Of a DNA stretch of 64,000 nucleotides, positions 11,855-58,977 are shown piece after piece. Positions within the stretch are counted from its first letter, which is position 1. Each line of letters starts with the position of its first letter. The stretch spans positions 311,712-375,711 of the forward strand of contig JAKAEA010000001.1 in the NCBI GenBank assembly GCA_021818465.1. The letters run 5' to 3'. The DNA is from a bacterium. GTDB taxonomy: Bacteria > Patescibacteriota > Minisyncoccia > Phycocordibacterales > JAKAEA01. Made by a program: the position numbers and the translations under genes. The notes below the pieces were generated by a model. It searched no databases and had not been told where the DNA came from. It saw nothing but the letters and a program-made list of their open reading frames with translations.

Positions 11855-12112
11855 ATGAAAAAAAATCCAGTATGTACTATCTTGTGGTCAGATGCGGCAT
11901 ATAGCTATGATACAGAACCCGACCCGACCACACCAACGCCGTGTCTTACAACAGGGTTTATATTTGAAACAAATGAACAATATACTTTCATTGCTACAAA
12001 TGTAAAATATGATAAAGATACTGGCATTCTTACTGCCGTGGATGGTTTGATTATTCCAGAAAAAGCAATTTTGGAATTTAAACGAATAGGTGATTATCAT
12101 CCACAAGAATAA
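11855..12112 (+). CDS. Small hypothetical protein, paralog 1 (85 aa)
   Basis: ORF with upstream A/T-rich leader; homologous to the next ORF (shared I.W.DA...GF..E....Y..I....TG...IP...I pattern). Confidence 0.5.
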   Translation: MKKNPVCTILWSDAAYSYDTEPDPTTPTPCLTTGFIFETNEQYTFIATNVKYDKDTGILTAVDGLIIPEKAILEFKRIGDYHPQE

Positions 12113-12119
12113 TAATTAC

Positions 12120-12368
12120 ATGTCTGCAAAAAAAATCAGAGTTATTTGGAACGACGCGAGACTTTTTTCTCCTCAACAAAAAACCATCAGTCTGTCTTCT
12201 ATGGAAACACTCGGCTTTCTTGAAAAAGAAACTGATACATATCTTTTGATCAAAGATCCCATAACCACAGGACGGGATACTGGAGGCAAACATCCCAAAC
12301 AAAAACCAACGTTTTACTATATTCCCAAAGGAATGATTCAATCAATTGAATATATCACTATTCAATAA
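12120..12368 (+). CDS. Small hypothetical protein, paralog 2 (~82 aa)
   Basis: ORF 12090..12368, likely start MSAKKIRVIWNDA at 12120; tandem paralog of 11855..12112. Confidence 0.5.
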   Translation: MSAKKIRVIWNDARLFSPQQKTISLSSMETLGFLEKETDTYLLIKDPITTGRDTGGKHPKQKPTFYYIPKGMIQSIEYITIQ

Positions 12369-12495
12369 TTCCGTTCTAATCTCGTCCCAGACGGCCCGCC
12401 AACTCGTGAGGCGCACGAAAGGCGTCTCATGCTAATTTTTAGTTTTGCATAAACTGGTTTTATGATCACTCTTGGGCGCGTTGCGATACTATCTG
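12362..12495. repeat. Repeated intergenic element copy 1 (~135 nt; core GCCAACTCGTGAGGCGCACGAAAGGCGT at 12398-12425)
   Basis: Near-identical to 15058-15195 (shared AATAATT..GTTCTAAT..., core 28-mer, and downstream GCGATACTAT block). Confidence 0.75.
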
Positions 12496-12581
12496 TGATA
12501 TGAATCCCAAAAAACTGCGGACAGAGGAGAGTGGCCGGAACTGTATTTCTTCATTCTTTACAACTCCCAAAATAAGAGGTA

Positions 12582-13334
12582 GTGTTTGTGATAAGTTTGT
12601 TAGTTAATCTGTTTCTAAATATGTACTGTAAACATTGTGGTGAAAAAATGACTAACGGTGCCCAATTTTGCGGTAAATGTGGCGTGCTGGTAGATAATAA
12701 AGGTCCACAAAATCAGGAGATGTATAAAGAAAGTTCTTTAGACGTTGAGTTAAAAAGAGGCGTATATAAACTTGAAAATGGAGATATGGCGGGAGCAGAA
12801 AAAATCTTTGAAGATTTAGCTTTCAAATATAATGCGCCGATGGCGTGGGTATATATCGGAGGAATTAAATTAGGGCAATTAGATTCTGGAGAAAGCACGG
12901 TGCAACAGGCGCTTAACTGTTTTGTAAAAGCTAGTCAAATAAATCCTACGTCAAAAGAGATGTATCAGAGTATTTTTTGCGATATAGCTACAAAACAAAT
13001 AGAGAAATTTTATAACCAGTATTTTTTAACAAAAAAACAAGCTGGCAAAGCCAGCAGGAGAGGTTGGGGAAGTTTAGCTCTTGGAGGATTGTCGCTTCTT
13101 TTCGCGAATCAAAGCCAGACACTGGGTAATAAGATGCTCGGAGGGGCGGGCGGTATTTATGGCGCTTATCGTGCAAACAAAAATTTCTCAAATAGTAGTA
13201 ATGCAAAACAATTATTGTCATTCTATATCACGACCATAAAACAACTTGTCGCAGGCGTAGGATCTTTTTGTTCTGATAGTAAAAATATTTATCAGGATTT
13301 TTTGAATAAAACAAACCGACTTAAATTAGCATAG
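12582..13334 (+). CDS. Zinc-ribbon domain protein A (N-terminal CxxC-x10-CxxC)
   Basis: GTG start with AAGAGG RBS (or ATG at 12621); MYCKHCGEKMTNGAQFCGKCG zinc ribbon; Gly-rich hydrophobic segment near C-terminus. Confidence 0.55.
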   Translation: MFVISLLVNLFLNMYCKHCGEKMTNGAQFCGKCGVLVDNKGPQNQEMYKESSLDVELKRGVYKLENGDMAGAEKIFEDLAFKYNAPMAWVYIGGIKLGQLDSGESTVQQALNCFVKASQINPTSKEMYQSIFCDIATKQIEKFYNQYFLTKKQAGKASRRGWGSLALGGLSLLFANQSQTLGNKMLGGAGGIYGAYRANKNFSNSSNAKQLLSFYITTIKQLVAGVGSFCSDSKNIYQDFLNKTNRLKLA

Positions 13335-13355
13335 TCTATTAATTAACATATTTTT

Positions 13356-14450
13356 ATGTACTGTTCAAAATGTGGAAATAAAGCAGAACATGGCGACCGC
13401 TTTTGTATTAAATGTGGAACAAAACTTAACTTCACAGTAGAGGAAAATGTAGAAACGCTTAGTCAGGAAAAAATAGAAGAAATTATCAAAGATCTCAACG
13501 ATGGAACAGTAGCCGCATTCACAGCCGCCGAACTCACAGTTGCCGAAAAAGAGGCGGTAGTCAGAATAGCAATCAAACAACAAGACCCTCGACTGGCTAT
13601 AAGTATTCTTAATTATCTGAATAGTGTGAAAGAACACAAACTAACCTCGCAAGAAAAAATGGAATTAAAATGGACTATCCTAAAAAGCAAGGATACGGAA
13701 ATTGCGTGTTCTGCCTTGCTTAATCTTGGAAATGTTTTTACAGACCCAGAACGAAAAACCCTACGCGATATTGCATCAAAAACTACAAACGCTTATTGGG
13801 CGTATGGTATCTATCGAGAAGAATGTCTTGAGCTGGTACACGAACCAGAGAACAGAAAAGCGCTAAGAAAAACGGTTGTAGAAACGAACGATCCCAAATA
13901 CGCTTTTGAATTTCTTAGTGCTCAAGACGAAAACCTGGAATCATACGATAAGGATCTGAAGTCCTTGGAGTTTAGTAAAGAAGAATTAGAACATTTTAAA
14001 CAAATAATACTTTCTAGCCGAGATGTTGATATTGCATACAAGCTCTTGTTTTCCAAAGAACAAGTAGAAAAGGCAAAAAAAGATCCAGATATGTTTGATT
14101 ACACCTTTCCTTCAGTGATTGATTTAACACCTAACGAACAAGAAATCCTCAAGAAAATAATTCTTGAGAGTAAGAACGCTTATTCTGCCTACGACATACT
14201 TGGGGGGCTTCGTGGAAATCCGGCCGTTATTTTCACGGATATAGAACGAGCGCTTTTAAGAGAAATTTTAGTTCAAACAACGAATCCAACTGTTGCCCGT
14301 GGTGTCTTGTCTAATCCTATTCTGTCCCAGAGTCTCAGTCAGGAGGAGCGCGCTCATCTTGTTGGCGCTCAAAATGAAGACAGTAAGAAAAGAGAAGAAA
14401 TAAAGAAAAAATGGAGAGAATCAAATAAGACCCCGAGGGAAATTGAATGA
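13356..14450 (+). CDS. Zinc-ribbon domain protein B with internal helical repeats
   Basis: MYCSKCGNKAEHGDRFCIKCG zinc ribbon, paralogous N-terminus to previous gene; repeated ..NAY(W/S)AY(G/D)I.. helical motifs. Confidence 0.55.
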   Translation: MYCSKCGNKAEHGDRFCIKCGTKLNFTVEENVETLSQEKIEEIIKDLNDGTVAAFTAAELTVAEKEAVVRIAIKQQDPRLAISILNYLNSVKEHKLTSQEKMELKWTILKSKDTEIACSALLNLGNVFTDPERKTLRDIASKTTNAYWAYGIYREECLELVHEPENRKALRKTVVETNDPKYAFEFLSAQDENLESYDKDLKSLEFSKEELEHFKQIILSSRDVDIAYKLLFSKEQVEKAKKDPDMFDYTFPSVIDLTPNEQEILKKIILESKNAYSAYDILGGLRGNPAVIFTDIERALLREILVQTTNPTVARGVLSNPILSQSLSQEERAHLVGAQNEDSKKREEIKKKWRESNKTPREIE

Positions 14451-14462
14451 TAGGCGTTAAAA

Positions 14463-15020
14463 ATGTTAAAGAAAGATGATTGCCAAAAACTGAATAATGA
14501 ATTTGTATTTTTTCAGAATATTCTTATGGATATTTTGATCCGTCGCGCTATCTTCAAAAAATTTGAGGATGAGATGAAGAAGACTCACCTCACCGAACAC
14601 AACGATATGATGGCATTGGTTTGGTATGGTTATACAATTTCTCAATTAAGTGATTGTCGAAAATTCTTTGCCCGTGACGACGATGCTCATAGTTTTCAGT
14701 TTGTTGTTTGCCATATTAAAAATGAGGTTCTTAAAAAAGAACATAAAACCCTTTTTATTTTTTGGAAAGAAGAAGACCTAGAGACCGTTCTTAACAAGTA
14801 TCTACTTCATGCTAATATGCGTTTTCGTGATATCAAAACCGAAGTTCATGTTCGTGTTCTTGATTTATTTATTGACAAACTTGAAAAATATATTGAGTCA
14901 ATAAAAGATGATTTATTAAAAAATTATTCAGGAATCAGTGTAGTAGGATATGGAAATTTTTTGTTAGAACGAGAGCGTGAGGTTGATGTATTTTTTAAAG
15001 AAGTTAGAAAAAATCAATAA
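14463..15020 (+). CDS. Hypothetical protein (185 aa)
   Basis: Intact ORF with AT-rich composition, no recognisable motif. Confidence 0.4.
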   Translation: MLKKDDCQKLNNEFVFFQNILMDILIRRAIFKKFEDEMKKTHLTEHNDMMALVWYGYTISQLSDCRKFFARDDDAHSFQFVVCHIKNEVLKKEHKTLFIFWKEEDLETVLNKYLLHANMRFRDIKTEVHVRVLDLFIDKLEKYIESIKDDLLKNYSGISVVGYGNFLLEREREVDVFFKEVRKNQ

Positions 15021-15057
15021 AATTTTCCGTTATTATTCTTGGTTTTATATGTTATAA

Positions 15058-15195
15058 TTCAATAATTGAGTTCTAATACTATTCTAAACTTTCCGCCAAC
15101 TCGTGAGGCGCACGAAAGGCGTTTAATAACGCTTTTATATTTTTATAGACTGGTACGTAAATTTTTTTGAGTATGTCGCGATACTATTCTTGTCT
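15058..15195. repeat. Repeated intergenic element copy 2 (core at 15095-15122)
   Basis: See copy 1; begins right after stop of 14463..15020. Confidence 0.75.
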
Positions 15196-15505
15196 TGATT
15201 TTAAACTCAAACTATCGTTGACTTGTGAGAGTGTTTTGACTAACGTTCACGACAAATAAAAAACCCACTGCATTGTGCACATGCAGTGGGGGAGGAGAAA
15301 GTTTGATGGATCGATACATCAAAAATCTTTCTCGTGCTGATTTGATGAGACGAAACGAGTAATATCGAGACATCGATCTGCATAATCTCTCCGAAGAAGA
15401 CTAACTTCATTCGATTACACTTCTCGTCACAAACCCCTCAGCATTAATATTATAGCATATATGTAAAAAAAGTCAAATCATTGAACACTTGATGAAAATG
15501 AAACG

Positions 15506-15532
15506 GCCTGCCAACTCGTGCGGCGCACGAAT
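15506..15532. repeat. Partial third copy of repeat core (GCCTGCCAACTCGTGCGGCGCACGAA)
   Basis: 23/26 identity to core of copies 1 and 2; ~90 nt upstream of 15622 gene. Confidence 0.6.
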
Positions 15533-15621
15533 GAAAAAAGTTTATTGTTTCGTGATATATACAAATTTTTGTGTTATAAGTAACGCCAAGTATTGTCATT
15601 ACTTTTATAAGCTAAACTACT

Positions 15622-15969
15622 ATGACTAAAAAAATCGTATTTCTAGGTGTTTTTTTGGTGTTACTGATGAGTGTTGTGGCCGTACCAGCGGGTCAGGCTT
15701 TTGCTTGGGGATCATATGGTTATTATGGCGGCTACCAATATTATAATAGTTACCAGCCTTACTACAGCTATTACTATCAACCGTCGTATTATTACTATAC
15801 ACCGCCCGTATATACGCCACCGCCGACGTATACCTATTATTGCTCGTGGGGATGTGCGTCACACAACTATAACTACAATAACGACTATAATTATAATTAC
15901 AACTACAATCATAACTACAACCACAACTATAATCACAACTATAATTACAACAACTACCGTCAGTGGTAG
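15622..15969 (+). CDS. Secreted Tyr/Asn-rich low-complexity protein (signal peptide + YY/NYNYN repeats)
   Basis: N-terminal MTKKIVFLGVFLVLLMSVVAVPAGQAFA signal peptide; Tyr/Pro-rich then (NYNYNH)n; paralogous N-terminus to 22139..23149. Confidence 0.6.
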   Translation: MTKKIVFLGVFLVLLMSVVAVPAGQAFAWGSYGYYGGYQYYNSYQPYYSYYYQPSYYYYTPPVYTPPPTYTYYCSWGCASHNYNYNNDYNYNYNYNHNYNHNYNHNYNYNNYRQW

Positions 15970-15991
15970 ATGGTGGTTTTTTTCCAGCTCC

Positions 15992-16714
15992 TTATTTTTT
16001 TGAAACGTTTTTTATCGTAGCAAAACTTTTTTCAAGTGCTGTTTGCATGCTGCTTAAATCGGAAAAGGCAGGATACACGCTGCCATTCACAATAAAAAAT
16101 GGTGGTGTAGTGGTGGCAGGAATTGGCGGTAGAGCGATAAGACTTTCTACTGCTGCCCAGTCACTGTCGTAATTAAATGAATAAATATGTGCCTGAGGAT
16201 ACTTTTGTGTTACTGCTTGTAAAATATATCCTTGGGTCACACACTGCGCGCAGGTGCCTGTTGGGTAAAAATAGAGGATAAATGGACGCGATGTGGTAAC
16301 TGGAAGAGCGCAGCGGTGTATAATAGTTTGTTCAAGATTATAGTCTTTAATTTCCATGAGCGAATAGTAGCGTTCCAAACGGAAGAGATCGGGATTATCT
16401 GGTCCGAGCTGACTTTGCATAAAAGAAAGTTTATTTTGTAAATCAGTGAGACTCGTGGCAATGGCTTTCGCAGTGGTTGTAGCTGAAGCGCCAGTGCTCG
16501 TACTGGAAGCGCAGAGAGATGTGTTGATGTTAGCAGTAAGGATGTCGGTTCGCGCTTGGAGTGATAAAATTTGAGTAGCGATGGCATCTTCTTCATTTTT
16601 AATAATGGCAGTTTTTTGATTATTGATATAGACACTAACCATCCACGCACCGATAAAGATGACGGCCGTAATAACAAGAACTGAAATATATAGCGTAACG
16701 GGAATTCGTTTCAT
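15992..16714 (-). CDS. Membrane-anchored thioredoxin-like protein (CxxC)
   Basis: N-terminal TM helix, coiled-coil segment, C-terminal Trx-like region with YPTGTCAQC motif. Confidence 0.4.
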   Translation of the reverse strand: MKRIPVTLYISVLVITAVIFIGAWMVSVYINNQKTAIIKNEEDAIATQILSLQARTDILTANINTSLCASSTSTGASATTTAKAIATSLTDLQNKLSFMQSQLGPDNPDLFRLERYYSLMEIKDYNLEQTIIHRCALPVTTSRPFILYFYPTGTCAQCVTQGYILQAVTQKYPQAHIYSFNYDSDWAAVESLIALPPIPATTTPPFFIVNGSVYPAFSDLSSMQTALEKSFATIKNVSKK

Positions 16715-48706: not shown

Positions 48707-49336
48707 ATGGCTTACATTTTTTTGGATGAGAGTGGCGATTTGGGTTTTGGCAAAAAATCGTCAAAATGGTTTCTTTTTACGCTGGTAGTCGTCGATAATC
48801 CCCGAAAATTAGAGCGTCTTATTAAAAAGGTAAGAAAGACGATCAGAAAAAAATACAAGCATGTCCTATCGGAACTTCATGCTTATCACGCCGACGATGT
48901 CACTCGCATCCGTGTACTAAAGGCTATAGCTAAGCTTGATATTGCCGTTGTTACCACAATCCTCAATAAGCAAAAAGTCTATGTTGACCTGCAAAACCAG
49001 AAAAACTATCTTTACAACTACACCGCGAACATAATCCTTGATCGTTTAATGAATGCAACGTTGGTAGATGGCGCAAAGGAAATGTATCTTGTCGTTGATA
49101 GGAAAGATACCAAAAAGAATCTTCGCCAGAATTTTATCTCGTATATTTCAGAAGCCATGAACAAACGTAAAAGAGGCGGATTCAAAATGACTCTTGCCGC
49201 GTCTCACGACGAGAAAGGCCTGCAAGCGGTGGACTTCATTTCTTGGGCCATTTTTAGAAAATATGAGAAAGGAGACTGTGAGTTTTATGAGATTATTAAG
49301 TCCAAGATCGTGGACGAACGCTTGCTTTTCCCATAA
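48707..49336 (+). CDS. DUF3800 domain protein
   Basis: N-terminal IFLDESGD motif and overall DUF3800 pattern; sits at edge of RM/defence island. Confidence 0.6.
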   Translation: MAYIFLDESGDLGFGKKSSKWFLFTLVVVDNPRKLERLIKKVRKTIRKKYKHVLSELHAYHADDVTRIRVLKAIAKLDIAVVTTILNKQKVYVDLQNQKNYLYNYTANIILDRLMNATLVDGAKEMYLVVDRKDTKKNLRQNFISYISEAMNKRKRGGFKMTLAASHDEKGLQAVDFISWAIFRKYEKGDCEFYEIIKSKIVDERLLFP

Positions 49337-49474: not shown

Positions 49475-49972
49475 TTAACAGTCCAATTTTTCAATATCTT
49501 TCAAAATCTCGGCGGCGTGCGTCGCTGGGTCCACGTCTGGGTACACGGCAATGATTTTTCCAACGTCAGTACCACTCGCGGCAATTAGGTACGACACCCG
49601 GGCTGTCCCGCCGGCAAATGGTCCCGACTCGCGAATGGCCTCGTAGGCGCCAATAGTTTCTTTTCGCTCGTCGGAGAGCAAGGTAAAGGGCAAATGGTAC
49701 TTCTCGGCGAATTTTTTATGACTAGCCACCGAATCCTTAGACACGCCGAAGACCTTGATATCCGCCCGCTGGAAATCCTCATACCGCTCGGCAATCGTAC
49801 ACGCTTCCGTAGTGCACCCCGGCGTGTCATCCTTGGGATAGAAGTAGAGGAGGATAAATCGCGTCGGCGGAGTAGTCTGACTGGCGTTTTTTAAATGGTA
49901 CGCCAGCGTATGTTCCCGTCCATCTTGGTCGGGGAGGGAGAATTCTGGGGCTTGGGTGGTGATGTTGAGCAT
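49475..49972 (-). CDS. bcp: Peroxiredoxin (Bcp/thiol peroxidase, AhpC-TSA family)
   Basis: FYPKDDTPGCTTEA peroxidatic Cys motif; probable start MLNITTQAPEF (ORF 49475..50071). Confidence 0.8.
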   Translation of the reverse strand: MLNITTQAPEFSLPDQDGREHTLAYHLKNASQTTPPTRFILLYFYPKDDTPGCTTEACTIAERYEDFQRADIKVFGVSKDSVASHKKFAEKYHLPFTLLSDERKETIGAYEAIRESGPFAGGTARVSYLIAASGTDVGKIIAVYPDVDPATHAAEILKDIEKLDC

Positions 49973-50046
49973 ATCCTTATTATGACATATATGGAGATAA
50001 AATGTTTCTAAAATTTTTCTAAAGAAAAGTTGAAGAAAAGGTAAAA

Positions 50047-51650
<1,604 letters not shown>

Positions 51651-51654
<4 letters not shown>

Positions 51655-51992
51655 TCATGGCGGATTACTACGACACAATGCAAGTGTGCGTGCGATGGGG
51701 GCACAAGACGACGGAATACTATAACCGAAGCCCGCAGTGGGGTGCCGACTTCTGTCCGCAATGCGGAAGCGCGACTACCATCGTGTGTGGAAAATGTGGG
51801 GCTAACATACGTGGTCACCATCATTTTGATGGTTTTTTCTCTGCCGTAGACACTAAAGTGCCTCTCAACTGCCATGCCTGCGGCGTAGCGTATTCATGGA
51901 AGTTTCGACACGTCGTAAGAAACTTCTTCAAGGCGTTAGTCGCACCCGTGAAGTACCTGATAGACGCCCTGGTGAGCGTTTTCAAGAAATGA
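51651..51992 (+). CDS. Small Cys-rich zinc-ribbon protein embedded between hsdM and hsdS (113 aa)
   Basis: GTG/ATG start overlapping hsdM stop, stop overlapping hsdS ATG (ATGA); three CxxC pairs (CPQCG, CGKCG, CHACG). Confidence 0.55.
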
Positions 51993-53155
51993 GCATGGCA
52001 ACTACCGAATGGAAAGAAACAACACTTGGTGATGTCTGCCTTGTTGAGAGTGGCGGGACTCCTTCGACAGCGAATAATACATACTGGAGTGGCTCGGTCT
52101 CTTGGATAACGCCTCGAGACCTGGCGTCACATGAAGGCCGTTGGATTGAACAAGGCGAAAAGAACATTACGGAAGAAGGGTTGCGAAACTCTTCTGCGCG
52201 CTTGCTGCCGAAAAACACCGTACTTTTTTCTTCGCGTGCTCCCATCGGTTATGTAGCAATCGCTGCACGAGAACTGGCAACGAATCAGGGTTTAAAGAAT
52301 CTTGTATGTGATGAGAAAGAGACGCATTACAAGTTTATCTACTATTGGCTGAAGGCGAACGTGCATGCTATCGAGCGACGGGCGTCTGGCTCTACTTTTG
52401 CTGAAGCGTCCGCGACGGTAATGAAAACACAGGAGGTGTTGCTTCCGCCACTTGACGAGCAGCGCTCCATTGCAACAGTGCTCTCTAGCTTGGACGACAA
52501 AATCGAACTCCTACGACGGCAGAATGAGACACTAGAGCAGATTGCGCAGGCGATTTTCAACGAGTGGTTCGTGAAGCCGACGAGTAAGCGCGTACCGCTT
52601 CGCGAGTTGGTTGAGTTCAACCCAGCCACACCACTCAAAAAAGGAACCGTTGCGGCCTATTTTGACATGGGTGCGCTACCGACCGTGGGCAGTTGGCCCG
52701 AAGAACCCATACAAAGACCCTTCGGCTCGGGGGCGAAGTTCCAAAATGGAGACACTCTGCTTGCACGCATTACTCCTTGTCTCGAAAATGGCAAGACCGC
52801 ATTTGTGCAGCGTCTAAAAAATGGTGAGGTTGCGTGGGGTTCAACTGAATTCATCGTAATCCGCCCAAACTCACCGCTACCGCCTACGTTTGGGTATTTG
52901 CTCGCCAGGAATCCTTCGTTTCGAGATTTTACTATACGCGCAATGACTGGCACGTCTGGTAGGCAGCGCGTACAGGTAGATATGCTGCTCGAATATGAGG
53001 TCTCAATGCCGAGCGACGATGTGATATCGGAGTTCTCTCATGCGGTCGAGGTCATATTCTCAAAAATAAAGAACAATGCCGAGCAAGCCGACACACTGGC
53101 AGCTACGCGCGATGCGCTGTTGCCGCGGCTGATGAGTGGCGAAATACGAGTATAA
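51989..53155 (+). CDS. hsdS: Type I restriction-modification system specificity subunit
   Basis: Two target-recognition domains separated by conserved central repeat (LDEQRSIATVLSSLDDKIELL), C-terminal conserved helix (LPRLMSGEIRV). Confidence 0.85.
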   Translation: MSMATTEWKETTLGDVCLVESGGTPSTANNTYWSGSVSWITPRDLASHEGRWIEQGEKNITEEGLRNSSARLLPKNTVLFSSRAPIGYVAIAARELATNQGLKNLVCDEKETHYKFIYYWLKANVHAIERRASGSTFAEASATVMKTQEVLLPPLDEQRSIATVLSSLDDKIELLRRQNETLEQIAQAIFNEWFVKPTSKRVPLRELVEFNPATPLKKGTVAAYFDMGALPTVGSWPEEPIQRPFGSGAKFQNGDTLLARITPCLENGKTAFVQRLKNGEVAWGSTEFIVIRPNSPLPPTFGYLLARNPSFRDFTIRAMTGTSGRQRVQVDMLLEYEVSMPSDDVISEFSHAVEVIFSKIKNNAEQADTLAATRDALLPRLMSGEIRV

Positions 53156-53157
53156 AT

Positions 53158-53856
53158 ATGAGAATAATCAAACTTTACTTCAGAATATTTTGGATACCCG
53201 TCCTCCTCCTTGTGGCGGCGGTTGGGTGCTGGATTTTTGTTCCCAGTACAATAGATGTTTTTGATGCTGGAGTATTAGGTACAGCATTTGGTGTAGGCAT
53301 ATCAATTTTTGCTGCTGAAGGAATGAAGAAAGTGTCCGAACATAAACGCGTCAAGAGAACATTCGTCTTTTTGAAGCTGATCACTATTCCGTATCTAAAG
53401 AATCAGGCAGAAAATATATCTGCCACATTGAATAAATACCGCGATTTATGCTCCATAGAACAAACGGTAGATTTTCTTACATTGGGTGCACATTTTGATG
53501 CCATTGCGACAAATTTTGACAAAAGTTGGCTCCAGTTGGTGTACTCCCAGGATTTTGTTGATGCTATAGAGTCTGACGACCACTTCAATAAATTGGCGAA
53601 TGCAATTCTTGAGGTGCTTCTATTCATTAAACAGGCGACAGGGCAATCAATTAACGCGAAAACACTTCTTATGATGAACAATATCTCCAACCTCAATGAT
53701 ATTCAGAAACAAGAGATGATGACTCGTGCAAAAAAGATAAGAGACGATCTTTTAGATAATGTTCAAAAGTTGGAAAAATATATAGGTAAACTTGACGAAG
53801 AAATAATCGCATTTTTGATCAAGAATGGAGCTACGTATAGCGAATTTGAAAGATAA
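53158..53856 (+). CDS. Hypothetical 2-TM membrane protein embedded between hsdS and hsdR (AT-rich)
   Basis: Start 2 nt after hsdS stop, stop 1 nt before hsdR ATG; two N-terminal TM helices then helical soluble domain; ~35% GC within ~60% GC operon. Confidence 0.55.
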
Positions 53857-53857
53857 T

Positions 53858-56800
53858 ATGAACCGAATCTACGAAAGCGACATCGAGAAGTGGGCTATCG
53901 AGGCACTGGAACACCAGGGCTACACGTACCTCGCACCCGAGACGCAGGAGGCCGAGCGCGGTGACCTGCACGACGTCGTGCTCGCGGGGCGGTTGCGCGA
54001 GGCCGTGGCACGACTCAACCCTAGAGTGCCCGAAGACGCGCGCGAGGACGCGGTCAAAAAAGTGCTCGCGCTTTCGTCATCGCCGCACTTGATAGAGGCA
54101 AACGAGGAGTTCCAGCGGATGCTCACTGATGGCGTGAGCGTGTCTTCCTACGCTGATGGCGAACAACGTGGCGAGGTCGTCCGCGTCATCGACTTCGCAG
54201 ATCCGCGCAATAACGACCTCGTGGTGGCCAACCAGTTCTCGGTACTCCACGACAACACTAGCAAGCGCCCCGACGTGGTACTCATCGTCAACGGCCTGCC
54301 TCTCGTCGTCATCGAGCTAAAGAACCCGACGGATGAGAACGCGACCGTGCACAAGGCGTACCAGCAGCTCGACAACTACAAGCGAGCCATTCCGCAGCTG
54401 TTCGCCTACAACAGCGTCCTGGTGGCCTCTGACGGCATAGACGCGAAGGCAGGGGCGCTCACGAGCCCGTGGGAGCGCTTCGCTATCTGGCGTGCGCCCG
54501 AGGGTAAGCGCGAGAAGGAAAAGACGACGCCGCAGATGCAGGTGCTCGTCGAGGAGATGCTCCAGCCCGAGGTGCTGCTCGACGTGGTGCGCAGCTTTAC
54601 GGTCTTTGAGAAGACGCGCCGCGAGGATGCGAAAACAGGTCAGACCATCGTGGAAACCATCAAGAAAATCGCGCAGTATCACCAATACTACGTGGTCAAT
54701 AAAGCGGTCGCTTCGACGACTAAGGCCACCGCAGAACATGGCGAGCGCAAAATCGGCGTCGTATGGCATACGCAGGGTTCGGGCAAGTCGCTCTCGATGG
54801 TGTTCTACACGGGCAAGGTCGTGCTCGCGCTCGATAACCCGACGGTGGTGGTGCTCACTGACCGCAACGACCTCGACGACCAGCTCTTCGAGACGTTTGC
54901 TGGTGCTCGCGACCTCTTGCGCCAGGAGCCCGTGCAGGCCGAAAGCCGCGAACACCTGAAGAAGCTTTTGCAGACGGCTGGTGGCGGCATCATCTTCACC
55001 ACCATTCAGAAGTTCTTCCCCGAGGACGGCGGGAGCACGTATGACGAGCTGTCCGACCGCAAGAACATCGTCGTCGTTGCGGACGAGGCGCACCGCAGCC
55101 AGTACGGCTTCGCGGCGCGAACGGTCTTCAAGAACGACGAGGCCATCACGCGCTACGGCAGCGCCAAGTACCTGCGCGACGCACTCCCGAACGCCTCGTT
55201 CATCGGCTTCACGGGTACGCCTATCGAGAAGGAGGACAAGTCCACGCTCGCTGTTTTCGGCGAGTATCTCGACGTGTACGACATCCAGCGTGCGGTCGAA
55301 GACAAAGCAACCGTTCCCATCTACTACGAGAGCCGTTTGGTGAAGGTGCACCTGCCCGACGACAAGAAAGCGGAGATGGACGAAGACGTGGAGGCGGTGG
55401 CCGAGGGCATCGAGTTTTCAGCAAAGGAGAAAGCCAAAGCGAAGTGGGCGCAGCTCGAAGCCATCGTCGGTAATCGCGAGCGAATCAAAGAGGTCGCTCG
55501 CGACCTGGTGGAGCACTTTGAGACGCGGCAAGAGGTCTTCACGGGCAAAGCGATGGTCGTGGCGATGAGCCGTCGTATCGCGGTGGAGCTGTACGAGGAG
55601 ATTGTCGCGCTCCGTCCCGAGTGGCACAGCACCGATTTGGATAAGGGCAAAATCAAGGTGGTGATGTCGGCGAGTTCGAGCGACCCGAAAGAGTTCCAGC
55701 AGCACCACACGAACAAGCCCGACCGCCGCAAGCTCGCGGAGCGTTTCAAAGACCCTACCAACCCGCTCCAGCTCGTCATCGTGCGTGACATGTGGCTCAC
55801 GGGCTTCGACGTGCCGTGCCTGCACACGATGTACGTGGACAAGCTCATGGAGGGCCACAATCTCATGCAAGCCATCGCTCGCGTCAATCGCGTCTATAAA
55901 GACAAGCCAGGCGGTCTCATCGTGGACTACATCGGCTTTGCCTCCGACTTGCAGAAAGCGCTCGCCGTCTACACCGAGAGCGGCGGCAAGGGCGACCCGA
56001 CCATCACGCAGAAGAAAGCCATCGAGGTGATGCAGGAGAAGTACGAGGTGGTGAAGCAGATGTTCCATGGCTTCGACTACCAGCGCTACTTCGCCGCCGA
56101 CACGCACGCGAAGCTCGGCATTATCCTCGAGGCGCAGGAGCACATTCTCGCGCAAGACCAAGACGACGAAGGCGCGTCAGGCAAGGAAAAGAAGAAAACC
56201 AGCGCCAAAGAGCGGTTCGTGCGGGAGGTTATGGCGCTGTCGCAGTCGTTTGCGCTTGCGGTGCCGAGCGAGGCGGCGATGGAGATACGCGACGAGGTTG
56301 CGTTCTTCCAGGCAATCAAGGCACGGCTTGTGAAGTTTGAGCCCGAGGGCGCACCTGGCACCGAGAACATCGGTACCGCTATTCGCCAAATCGTCGATCA
56401 GGCACTCGTGGCCGAGGGTGTCGTGGACATCTTTGCTGCGGCAGGCGTGCAGAAGCCCGACCTCTCCGTTCTCTCGGACGAGTTCCTCGCCGAGGTGCAA
56501 GGCATGAAGCATCGCAACCTGGCGATGGAGTTGCTGCGCAAGATTTTGAACGACGAGATAAAGCTACGCCTGCGCCGCAACGCGCTCCAGGGCAAGAAGC
56601 TCTCGGAGATGCTCGATAAGACCATCAAGAAGTATCAAAACAACCTGCTCACGGCCTCCGAGGTCATCCAAGAGCTCATCGAGCTGGCAAAGCAGATACG
56701 GCAGGAAGACGCCCGCGGCACGCAACTCGGCCTCTCTGACGACGAGGTGGCCTTCTACGATGCGCTGGCCGAAAACGAGAGCGCCCGCGAGGTGCTGGGC

Positions 56801-57064
56801 GATGAACAGCTGCGCGACCTCGCCCGTGTCCTCGTCGACAAGGTGCGCAAGAACACCTCGATTGACTGGACTATCCGTGAGAACGTACAAGCCCGCCTGC
56901 GCGTCTTGGTGAAGCGCACGCTCAACCAGTACGGCTATCCGCCCGATAAGCAGGCCATCGCCACCGAGACCGTGCTGAAGCAGGCTGAACTATTCGCCGA
57001 CGAGTGGGATGATTCTAGTTTGGATACTGTACAAAAAATTACTTCAGAGACTTTAAAGAAATAA
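53858..57064 (+). CDS. hsdR: Type I restriction enzyme R subunit
   Basis: N-terminal nuclease/HsdR_N region, SF2 helicase motifs (GSGKS Walker A, DEAHRSQ), 1068 aa. Confidence 0.9.
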
Positions 57065-57337: not shown

Positions 57338-57496
57338 CATGGGCTGGTTCATATTCATCGCCTTCATTTGTTTTCTCATTGTGCTGGGAGTGGTGCTGGG
57401 TAAAGACCCTATAAAGTTCACGATTGGGACGCTCGTGGTTCTTATGGCGTTGGCCTTTGTGGTTATAGCGTTTTACGTGCTTAAATCTGTGTTATG
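57338..57496 (+). CDS. Small membrane protein (52 aa, two hydrophobic helices)
   Basis: Not in ORF track (below 60 aa); preceded by extended -10 TGCTATACT; stop overlaps next gene start (ATGA). Confidence 0.45.
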
Positions 57497-58033
57497 ATTA
57501 TAAATATCATGTTCATCTGGATTATTGTCGCAATTTTGCTCTTTGTGCTGGTTGTTGTAATGGCGACCAACGTGGTGGCGGGAGGCCGTAGGCGGAGGGG
57601 TGGCTATACCTACAAAAAAGCTGATTGTGTTATGACGCAATCAGAAAAAATATGTTTTGAAGCGTTACAGAAAGCGGCGGGGAATACGTATTATATTTTC
57701 CCCCAGATGCACTTATCGGCCATTTTAAATCACAAAATCAACAGGCAGAGTTGGTATGGAGCCTTTCGGCATATTAATGGGAAATCGGTTGACTTTGTTT
57801 TGTGCGATAAGGTGATGCTCAAGCCGATGTTAGTTGTTGAACTGGATGACAGAACGCACGAGCGGCGTGATAGGCATATACGAGACAGAGAAGTAGAACG
57901 GATACTTAAAGAGGCTGATGTGCCGCTACTGCGGCTTTCGACCGTGTCGCCGCAAGACCCACTGGCTGTGGCGATTAATGGGGCAATAACGAGAACGTCA
58001 ATTGACCACGTGATGGGTTCTCAGGGGGTTTGA
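57494..58033 (+). CDS. DUF2726 domain protein (restriction-endonuclease-like fold) with N-terminal TM helix
   Basis: EKICFEAL...YIFPQMHLSAIL...GKSVDFVLCDK...PMLVVELDDRTHE matches DUF2726/PD-(D/E)xK-like pattern. Confidence 0.6.
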   Translation: MIINIMFIWIIVAILLFVLVVVMATNVVAGGRRRRGGYTYKKADCVMTQSEKICFEALQKAAGNTYYIFPQMHLSAILNHKINRQSWYGAFRHINGKSVDFVLCDKVMLKPMLVVELDDRTHERRDRHIRDREVERILKEADVPLLRLSTVSPQDPLAVAINGAITRTSIDHVMGSQGV

Positions 58034-58078
58034 AAGAATTTCACAAATACTTTATCTCCGGGTGGTATACTCCGCTCA

Positions 58079-58783
58079 ATGGATGCGGAATCGTTAAAAT
58101 TGGAACAACAGGCATACGATTTTATTGCTCATAGTGGGAGTGAGCTTGTTAAGCGTTTCGCCGACCCAACAATATATAAGCCAGTAGAGCGACCAGTCTC
58201 GCTTTTTATGGCCGGCTCGTCGGGGGCAGGAAAGACGGAAGTCTCTATAGGTTTAGTTAAACGTTTTACCACGAGGCCGATCCGGATTGATGCTGACGAA
58301 ATTCGGCAACTGTGTCCGGGGTATACTGGTGGCAATGCTCATGTATTTCAGAAGGCAGCTACCAAGGGCGTAAACATGCTTTTTGACTATGCACTTCATA
58401 AAAATATCCACGCCATCCTTGACGGCACGTTCGCGTATGCTGACGCGCCAAAGAATATTGAACGTTCATTGAAACATAACAGGATTGTCGAATTGTGGTT
58501 TGTGTATCAAGACCCTTTAGTGGCATGGGAGTTTACCAAAGTAAGAGAAATAAAAGAATGTCGTCATGTAGATAAGGATATCTTCATTAGAGGTTTCTTC
58601 AACGCAAAAGCCAATGCAATAAATGTTAAAACAGCTTTTGGAAGCAACCTTACGCTTAATTTACTCGTAAAGAACATCGACAATACTGACGGTGAGTTGT
58701 TTTTGAACATTCAAGCAAACGACCTTGACCATCGAATTGGGCAGGTATACACTGAGGGTGAATTGCGAGGACTATTACTATGA
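58079..58783 (+). CDS. Zeta-toxin-like P-loop kinase
   Basis: Walker A FMAGSSGAGKT, overall zeta_toxin/AAA_33 pattern, ~234 aa. Confidence 0.6.
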   Translation: MDAESLKLEQQAYDFIAHSGSELVKRFADPTIYKPVERPVSLFMAGSSGAGKTEVSIGLVKRFTTRPIRIDADEIRQLCPGYTGGNAHVFQKAATKGVNMLFDYALHKNIHAILDGTFAYADAPKNIERSLKHNRIVELWFVYQDPLVAWEFTKVREIKECRHVDKDIFIRGFFNAKANAINVKTAFGSNLTLNLLVKNIDNTDGELFLNIQANDLDHRIGQVYTEGELRGLLL

Positions 58784-58977
58784 TGAAATTTTTTAAGAAT
58801 ATAACCGGCAGATTGACCGGAAAAAAAGCTGTCGCGACGGAAAAAGACGACTTTGCCGATTTCTTTTTAAATGCTAAATCGGCGGAAAAAACGAAGATAC
58901 TCCGACAAGTGATGAGGGAAGCAATAGCGGAACAAAAAGCGGTTATGGAAAAATATAATAATAGGGCGAAAGTTTGA
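58780..58977 (+). CDS. Small hypothetical protein coupled to zeta-like kinase (65 aa)
   Basis: ATGA overlap with upstream stop; Lys/Glu-rich helical. Confidence 0.4.
   Translation: MMKFFKNITGRLTGKKAVATEKDDFADFFLNAKSAEKTKILRQVMREAIAEQKAVMEKYNNRAKV

Follow-up and report, generated by a model that had tools for sequence, protein, structure and literature searches.

We found that a short AT-rich gene, here called orfX, occupies the slot between hsdS and hsdR of a five-gene Type I restriction-modification (RM) operon (hsdM-DUF2321-hsdS-orfX-hsdR, all on the + strand, 50.0-57.1 kb) in a stretch of 64,000 nucleotides (nt) from a Patescibacteria contig (JAKAEA010000001.1, positions 311,712 to 375,711; the whole stretch is hereafter called the window), and that orfX and its homologues move as gene-sized units that associate promiscuously with defence operons. 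Comparison with related operons strongly supports a secondary arrival of orfX in this one, via cargo exchange. We regard it as a candidate defence gene that follows the known pattern of genes embedded in RM systems and represents a new membrane-bound family. As to what its product does, the reading that we favour, tentatively and at somewhat less than even confidence, is that orfX is an autonomous second-line defence module acting at the membrane, in which the end of a cytoplasmic helical bundle recognises and a transmembrane (TM) hairpin gives the output.

HsdR has many close relatives in genomes of the Candidate Phyla Radiation (CPR), and their operons differ in what lies on either side of hsdS. 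The window carries a DUF2321 gene in the slot between hsdM and hsdS and orfX in the slot between hsdS and hsdR. Locus L029 (58% GC), whose HsdM and HsdR are 93% and 91% identical to those of the window, carries genes of 80 and 379 amino acids (aa) in the first slot and a DUF4238 gene in the second; L030 (89% and 88%) carries a DUF4145 gene and a gene for an unrelated 268-aa protein of no known family; and L001 (59% and 52%) carries a Ymh gene and an orfX homologue 67% identical to that of the window, the sole close relative that turned up within a Type I operon. Because the nearest HsdM and HsdR proteins travel with other cargo and the orfX-bearing L001 is distant, the relationships of orfX are discordant with those of the RM core. 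Nucleotide homology between the window and L029 extends over hsdM (86.7%), the centre of hsdS (52478-52581) and its 3' end (53090-53153), and then resumes at 53848 and continues through hsdR (83.9%); the segment replaced relative to L029 is orfX almost to the base, and against L030 homology after orfX resumes at 53857. When the junctions are aligned, each cargo gene is set exactly between the HsdS C-terminus (RDALLPRLMSGEIRV, followed by the stop) and the HsdR start. The DUF4238 and 268-aa cargos, and a 252-aa slot cargo from a Saccharibacteria contig described below, were considered as remote orfX homologues and rejected by hhalign. The Type I lineage of the window thus has two hypervariable slots, and orfX is one of several occupants of the second. 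This pattern matches published descriptions of the hsdS-hsdR site as a recombination hotspot for embedded defence cassettes such as DarTG2 (PMC12255303) and of "guilt-by-embedding", which has yielded validated defences (10.1101/2024.01.29.577857). An earlier note on this DNA had proposed a secondary insertion into the operon, and the other genes found in the slot of the nearest HsdM/HsdR relatives, together with nucleotide breaks at 53153 and 53848, bear this out.

That note had also described an AT-rich gene within an operon of roughly 60% GC. By composition calculation, orfX has a GC content of 0.375 (0.382 at third codon positions, GC3), compared to 0.591 (GC3 0.789) for hsdM and 0.595 (GC3 0.800) for hsdR, and its difference from hsdR is significant, as had been supposed (two-proportion z of about -13 for GC3 and about -10.6 for total GC). 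The uniform background did not hold up, however, as hsdS (GC 0.510, GC3 51%) and the DUF2321 gene (GC 0.515, GC3 60.5%) are well below 60%; the operon is a three-way GC mosaic in a genome of about 47% GC (the mean of the whole window is 0.468, and only 4.5% of the 699-bp segments across it are at least as rich in AT as orfX). Furthermore, hsdM and hsdR, too, are foreign to the genome and share 84-87% nucleotide identity with L029, of about 58% GC, for which reasons the RM core looks recently acquired from a GC-richer CPR relative. To speak of one anomalous insertion is thus apt for orfX as a secondary arrival and inapt for an operon whose hsdM and hsdR are also foreign and which has two variable slots. 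In the history that we propose, recombination put orfX into the hsdS-hsdR slot of this recently acquired operon, the exchange points lying on one side in the conserved end of hsdS, up to its stop, and on the other in the opening codons of hsdR.

The tight coupling of orfX to both of its neighbours, already remarked upon in the earlier note, was confirmed. Two nucleotides (AT) separate the hsdS stop (TAA, 53153-53155) from the orfX ATG at 53158, and a single T separates the orfX stop (TAA, 53854-53856) from the hsdR ATG. We placed the latter at 53858 because residue 1 then pairs with residue 1 of a 91%-identical homologue and the N-terminus is conserved; a start farther upstream in the same frame (ATG at 53825), with a 32-nt overlap into orfX, was set aside in its favour. 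Neither a sigma-70-like promoter nor a convincing terminator was found around orfX on the + strand, so that a promoter or terminator of its own was rejected, and co-transcription and translational coupling are suggested by the same result: orfX probably shares the transcript of the operon and relies on coupling to hsdS for its translation. One could also take the strong compositional mismatch, which implies recent arrival, to mean that orfX is an inert passenger, a hitch-hiker that has no function in this operon and is decaying. We give this almost no credence, since the open reading frame (ORF) is intact and full length with all family-invariant residues present, the precise coupling to both neighbours is preserved, and its GC content lies at the high end of the range of the family (28-44%, below that of the gene's own locus in nearly every host), which suggests some residence time.

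A search of 5.8 billion protein clusters returned 77 orfX homologues, nearly all of 231 aa, at 40-67% identity, and an exhaustive profile HMMER search of 1.84 billion representatives matched 37 clusters, all of them members of the family except for two repeat proteins, which were rejected as relatives because they match via a spurious DKKWLGK motif. A second profile search, seeded with the most divergent members, gave no further relatives, and about 80 homologue clusters are known in all. Every named source belongs to the Patescibacteria (Paceibacterota/Parcubacteria, Moranbacteria, Dojkabacteria and Saccharibacteria), and one bin with a homologue is labelled Gammaproteobacteria. The family alignment contains eight invariant residues (D121, W124, L125, F133, E152, F156, R195 and L205) and about 40 that are nearly invariant; D121, W124, L125 and F133 are invariant across 43 sequences, F133 and D135 are so in a more diverse set, and TM2 and the stalk are as conserved as the soluble domain. 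Judged from these homologues, their invariant residues and a confident structure model (below), orfX is a real protein-coding gene under constraint. Scans of orfX against Pfam, NCBIfam, PHROGs and PADLOC gave no match, and 43 family members scanned at E<=1 gave scattered coiled-coil noise with no recurrent family. No relative was found in IMG/VR (2.9 M contigs), from which we conclude that the family is not phage-borne. Some members of the family (269-276 aa; P0068, P0078 and P0085) have one more TM segment at the N-terminus. The element that carries P0068 (269 aa; L066/L067) encodes a serine recombinase, a PLD-like nuclease, an IS30-like transposase and a TraG/VirD4-like coupling protein, and an Eco57I-type RM system lies close by; in L066 the opposite strand has an ORF of 269 aa, which was considered as a paralogue and rejected.

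An autonomous role of orfX is suggested by its genomic contexts, about 36 of which, derived from 63 loci, are non-redundant at 85% neighbour identity (L004 and L005, which are the same sequence, were rejected as independent contexts). The upstream gene is co-oriented with orfX in 35 of 36 contexts and lies at most 20 nt away in 25 of the 36. An RM operon of Type I, II, IIG or III lies within two genes on either side of orfX in 15 of the approximately 36 (a raw count), and several more homologues stand beside Abi or nuclease genes; this speaks against the refuting case named in the earlier note, in which the homologues would be housekeeping membrane proteins with no relation to defence loci. 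Within RM operons its position varies. Type I placements are hsdS-orfX-hsdR (the window and L001) and, on the Saccharibacteria contig, hsdM-orfX-252-aa gene-hsdS-UvrD-hsdR; those in Type III operons are HTH-orfX-mod-res (HTH, helix-turn-helix), AbiEii-orfX-mod-res and orfX-mod-res, and the Type IIG placement is HTH-orfX-Eco57I-like. In Type II operons, orfX stands third, after a methylase gene and then either a MvaI/BcnI or a MutH-like gene, and where an M.EcoRI-like methylase (M) is paired with a DUF262-HNH nuclease (R) the orders M-R-orfX, HTH-orfX-M-R and M-orfX-R all occur. In L024, hsdM lies two genes from the homologue. In L006 (12727-13827) and L007 (11899-12999), the last gene of the orfX-bearing Type III operons belongs to Vpar_1526 (PF28206), a Pfam family defined only recently; because of its very low GC content (31.5%), this gene may be another embedded cargo.

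Immediate neighbours outside RM systems include AbiEi/AbiEii, HNH, T5orf172, DUF2726 and NYN proteins and a weak HEPN_Apea match with HD; another context has an FtsK-gamma protein, then M78 and DUF4411. Trypsin_2 proteases adjoin orfX in five contexts, many contexts are 1-5 kb from a large serine recombinase, some of these with a rolling-circle Rep gene, and HTH-orfX pairs stand alone beside serine recombinases. Altogether, more than 15 unrelated families are represented among the immediate partners, and with no fixed partner family orfX was rejected as a member of a type II toxin-antitoxin pair. No SMODS, SLOG, TIR, cyclase or retron partner was seen among the neighbours in these contexts, and none contains endolysin or phage structural genes.

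The turnover of partners can be followed among close relatives. In L031, AbiEii is followed by orfX and then by a Type III mod-res pair; in L001, AbiEii and orfX are separated by hsdM-Ymh-hsdS, and the gene after orfX is hsdR. The AbiEii genes of the two loci are 86% and the orfX genes 85.8% identical in nucleotide sequence, and the breakpoints between the loci lie at the start and stop codons of orfX. L004 has AbiEii, a 62-aa ORF and orfX, with nothing defence-related downstream. Across the three loci (L001 3208-11799, L031 56-4565 and L004 6494-8696), AbiEii and orfX are kept at 74-86% nucleotide identity and RM modules of different types come and go. A 16-nt "repeat" flanking hsdM-Ymh-hsdS in L001 was not accepted as a signature of site-specific recombination, as it is A-rich stop/start sequence. 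In a neighbour-joining tree of orfX annotated by context, the clade that includes the window mixes Type I, Type III, AbiE and T5orf172 contexts, and a second (clade B) contains RM contexts only, of all four types. Because partners turn over among close orfX relatives, orfX appears to be independent of any specific partner. The earlier note had thought of a membrane effector linked to a nucleic-acid sensor; the unrelated partners argue instead for an autonomous module that is not wired to the RM enzyme of the window.

The same contexts could be taken to suggest that orfX is an RM cofactor, tethering or regulating restriction enzymes at the membrane so as to position them at the site of DNA entry or to restrain them during establishment. 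It is embedded in four RM types and found beside solitary nucleases (HNH, T5orf172, NYN and DUF2726), co-oriented and tightly coupled, and in three contexts it directly follows a C-protein-like HTH gene that heads the RM operon. We nevertheless consider such a role improbable: the partner enzymes are structurally unrelated, which makes a single conserved interface with orfX implausible, the closest HsdM and HsdR relatives function without orfX, and orfX occurs without any nuclease at all in the HTH-orfX and Trypsin_2-orfX arrangements. A bolder version, to which we would give a still smaller chance, makes orfX a CPR-specific membrane hub or "gatekeeper" that would link barriers to foreign DNA with the place where DNA comes into the cell. 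Its conserved cytoplasmic tip would bind some conserved part of the uptake or injection machinery, so that the host nuclease operon is expressed and acts at that place; such a hub would be usable by Type I, II, IIG and III systems alike, and CPR cells import DNA constitutively.

The structure predicted for the orfX product agrees with a membrane location. Kyte-Doolittle hydropathy peaks, from which the TM segments were taken, the family consensus and the helices of an AlphaFold2 (AF2) model all concur in the two-TM protein that the earlier note had described. Basic residues at the N-terminus and after TM2, and an acidic loop of about 8 residues between the TM segments, point to an N-in/C-in topology with the C-terminal 175 residues in the cytoplasm, and the family consensus has the same TM and charge pattern. 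The AF2 model, built with the family alignment, is confident and all-helical (predicted local distance difference test 86.7, predicted template modelling score 0.71): TM2 runs on into the cytoplasm as a 60-residue helix (34-93), short helices (100-136) bear the invariant motif, and long helices (140-173 and 181-222) complete the bundle. From this order of helices the conserved motif would lie at the membrane-distal end of the bundle. We regard the predicted topology and fold class as firm. Foldseek searches against PDB and BFVD gave no significant fold match, and a sequence search of PDB gave nothing below E = 0.4. No catalytic signature was seen in orfX, the Rx4-6H motif of HEPN proteins being absent (R64 and R195 are conserved without a conserved His at +5 to +7), and with no HEPN-clan profile match either, orfX was rejected as a HEPN protein. 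It was likewise rejected as a core Type I subunit, having no Pfam match to HsdR, HsdM or HsdS and being absent from the nearest RM relatives.

On the reading that we favour, orfX would be an inner-membrane hairpin (N-in/C-in) with a cytoplasmic helical bundle of about 175 residues, encoded by a self-contained, horizontally shuffled cargo gene of CPR/Patescibacteria defence islets, and its defence would not depend on which restriction enzyme it accompanies. Upon invasion, some conserved cue or partner would be detected by the conserved end of the bundle, after which the Gly/Ala-rich hairpin would exert its effect on the membrane through oligomerisation, leakage or depolarisation, resulting in abortive infection or growth arrest. 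An abortive-infection mechanism is plausible, and the combination of hairpin and cytoplasmic domain seems more like known membrane effectors than like exclusion proteins, which is a likeness and not membership. The defence role, the co-transcription, the sensing by the bundle and the membrane-damage output are what we infer from these data.

Several observations weigh against this reading. Oligomerisation and pore formation by orfX are pure inference; no model in PADLOC v2, including its PDC and HEC candidates, matches any of the 43 members scanned; and the association with RM systems may partly reflect the fact that these are the commonest cargo of CPR islands. In addition, a third clade of the tree (clade C), which has short branches, is linked mostly to envelope proteins rather than RM systems: Trypsin_2 proteases anchored by a TM segment at the N-terminus, lipoproteins, and proteins in which such a segment is joined to a linker rich in S, T, N and Q. 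These partners could point to an envelope or mobile-element function. Those encoded upstream of orfX (L010 6011-7000, L019 6046-6999, L047 4054-4923, L017 5703-6362, L045 965-1594 and L012 1877-2449) are small extracytoplasmic proteins, several of which have the TM anchor and linker in common, that of L012 having a lipoprotein signal in place of the TM anchor; their C-terminal domains vary between Trypsin_2 proteases and cysteine-containing globular domains, and together they resemble a polymorphic set of surface proteins carried on serine-recombinase islets. One could thus envision orfX as an islet core membrane protein without a defence role, a partner or anchor of proteases and surface proteins, or a gene for element maintenance (addiction), with RM systems merely a common cargo. 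The location of clade C beside serine recombinases and Rep genes would fit such a role, as would the three-TM variant on an element with a TraG/VirD4-like protein. We consider it unlikely, if worth keeping in view, as no recombinase is near the orfX genes of the window, L001 and L026, all three of which lie within Type I operons, the members of clade B all accompany RM systems (of four types), and the diversity of the partners is too great for a role as a specific chaperone or anchor.

Most known exclusion proteins of the inner membrane are small or carry domains that face outward. Entry or superinfection exclusion, in which orfX would block DNA at the cytoplasmic membrane without killing and so provide a pre-restriction barrier beside RM, is about as doubtful in our view as the envelope role. 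A membrane protein on serine-recombinase/Rep islets with lipoproteins and surface-exposed proteins is typical of exclusion loci, orfX co-occurs with RM systems, that is, with other barriers to incoming DNA, and LdgA, to which orfX can be likened by description, is a non-abortive single-gene defence restricted to Patescibacteria (PMC12366544). However, nearly all of the mass of orfX is predicted to be cytoplasmic, its external loop has only about 8 residues, and it has no relative on the viral contigs of IMG/VR. For want of such a relative, of a significant BFVD fold match and of lysis or structural neighbours, orfX was rejected as a holin or prophage superinfection-exclusion protein.

Among known systems, PrrC and DarTG2 are the nearest analogues of orfX in their genetic logic. 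In EcoprrI (Type Ic), the order is hsdM-hsdS-prrC-hsdR, which places prrC in the slot of orfX. PMC3710099 describes prrC as "embedded" in the operon and interprets it as a second line of defence for the case that restriction has failed; like orfX, it is a co-oriented non-RM gene within a Type I hsdMSR operon. PrrC, however, is a cytoplasmic ABC-ATPase and HEPN RNase that is kept inactive by binding its RM enzyme, whereas orfX is a membrane protein with neither signature and is not tied to one RM type. A PrrC-type anticodon nuclease was rejected for orfX (no ABC/SbcC-like NTPase domain by Pfam or NCBIfam, a TM hairpin as N-terminus, no HEPN), and its unrelated partners argue against PrrC-like latency through binding of an RM enzyme. 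DarTG2 and other cassettes (RRDM island) use the same hsdS-hsdR slot (PMC12255303), although DarTG2 is a toxin-antitoxin pair and orfX a single membrane protein. In 96.7% of cases, an embedded gene is oriented like the system around it (10.1101/2024.01.29.577857); orfX likewise lies on the same strand inside a complete RM system, in a slot that holds unrelated genes in close relatives. It differs from the embedded PDC and HEC families in having no PADLOC v2 match, in being CPR-restricted and in occurring in Type II, IIG and III operons as well.

The HEPN accessory genes of L030 (DUF4145) and L001 (Ymh) are alternative slot occupants in the same RM lineage and encode all-alpha proteins like that of orfX, which in contrast is membrane-anchored and has neither the Rx4-6H motif nor a profile match. 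Two-TM effectors (SLATT and those of CBASS, Pycsar and retrons) resemble orfX in their hairpin, cytoplasmic helical region and defence-island context, but none of the 43 orfX family members matches the Pfam models SLATT_1-5, SLATT_fungal or DUF4231 at E<=1, the sole structural match to a SLATT protein was non-significant (E = 1.2), and no orfX context has the cyclase, SMODS, SLOG, TIR or retron partner of such effectors. LdgA and DdgA, Patescibacteria-restricted proteins recovered from metagenomic selections, defend E. coli and have no sequence or structural homology to known proteins (PMC12366544); orfX, compared to them by description only, is similarly confined to Patescibacteria and without known homology.

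The features of the locus are listed in the table. The hsdM start was taken from the public gene call, mapped onto the window, and the hsdS start from the ATGA overlap with the DUF2321 stop. The DUF2321 gene, which has ATGA-type overlaps with both hsdM and hsdS, matches profile positions 1-81 of 157 only (Pfam, E = 2.4e-20) and also phrog_16447 (4e-13); the public gene call omits it and gives instead a 124-aa minus-strand ORF and an over-long hsdS from 51896. HsdR has the Pfam domains HSDR_N, SWI2_SNF2, T1R_D3-like and T1RH-like_C. About 0.7 kb upstream of hsdM is an AT-rich (39.8% GC) DUF3800 gene (48707-49336, +), which may mark the other edge of the island, and a divergent AhpC/peroxiredoxin gene (49475-50071, minus strand) lies between the two. 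Directly downstream of hsdR is a defence- or toxin-antitoxin-like islet (57339-58977, +), in which the 65-aa ORF could encode the antitoxin of the zeta-toxin kinase; a TM-anchored DUF2726 gene like that of the islet lies directly upstream of the orfX homologue in L059. Farther away, the AT-richest part of the window (positions 12000-16000, 35-37% GC) may represent a further block of horizontal origin. Two neighbouring genes in it (12582-13334 and 13356-14450) encode products that open with zinc-ribbon motifs, and two ORFs there have no Pfam match.

Table. Positions of orfX, of the surrounding RM operon and of the downstream islet within the window (GC contents and profile matches where available).
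Feature	Position	Strand	Remarks
hsdM (Type I methyltransferase)	50080..51654	+	Pfam N6_Mtase 1e-109, HsdM_N; 59% GC
Cargo of the hsdM-hsdS slot, 113-aa zinc-ribbon protein (DUF2321, N-terminal half)	51651..51992	+	
hsdS (specificity subunit)	51989..53155	+	Pfam Methylase_S 5.9e-36; 51% GC
Left exchange junction: conserved hsdS 3' end (ending in RDALLPRLMSGEIRV and stop) and 2-nt spacer	53090..53157	+	
orfX, 232-aa two-TM protein, cargo of the hsdS-hsdR slot	53158..53856	+	37.5% GC
TM1 of orfX (residues ~10-28)	53185..53241	+	hydropathy; AF2 helix 12-27
TM2 of orfX (residues ~37-54), Gly/Ala-rich	53266..53319	+	hydropathy; AF2 helix 34-93
Most conserved motif of orfX (residues 120-135), in short helices between helices 34-93 and 140-173	53515..53562	+	
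Right exchange junction: orfX stop, 1-nt spacer, hsdR ATG	53848..53860	+	
hsdR (Type I restriction subunit)	53858..57064	+	59.5% GC
Two-TM micro-ORF, 52 aa	57339-57497	+	
DUF2726 protein with restriction endonuclease fold and N-terminal TM anchor	57494-58033	+	
Zeta-toxin kinase	58079-58783	+	
65-aa ORF overlapping the zeta-toxin kinase gene	58780-58977	+	

Patescibacteria account for a large part of the diversity of bacteria and are mostly without CRISPR, and to our knowledge descriptions of defence systems in them are few. Embedded candidate families have already been catalogued by the thousand; orfX is unusual among these for its membrane architecture, its promiscuity across RM types and its restriction to CPR bacteria, and it has no recognisable enzymatic domain. 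The locus shows at nucleotide resolution the exchange of cargo in two Type I slots exactly at start and stop codons, and this exchange supports "guilt-by-embedding" as a discovery rule beyond the well-sampled phyla; should orfX turn out to be inert or to have nothing to do with defence, it would serve as a useful warning about the same rule. The family thus offers a cheaply testable single-gene candidate for a new membrane-based mechanism of defence or exclusion in Patescibacteria.

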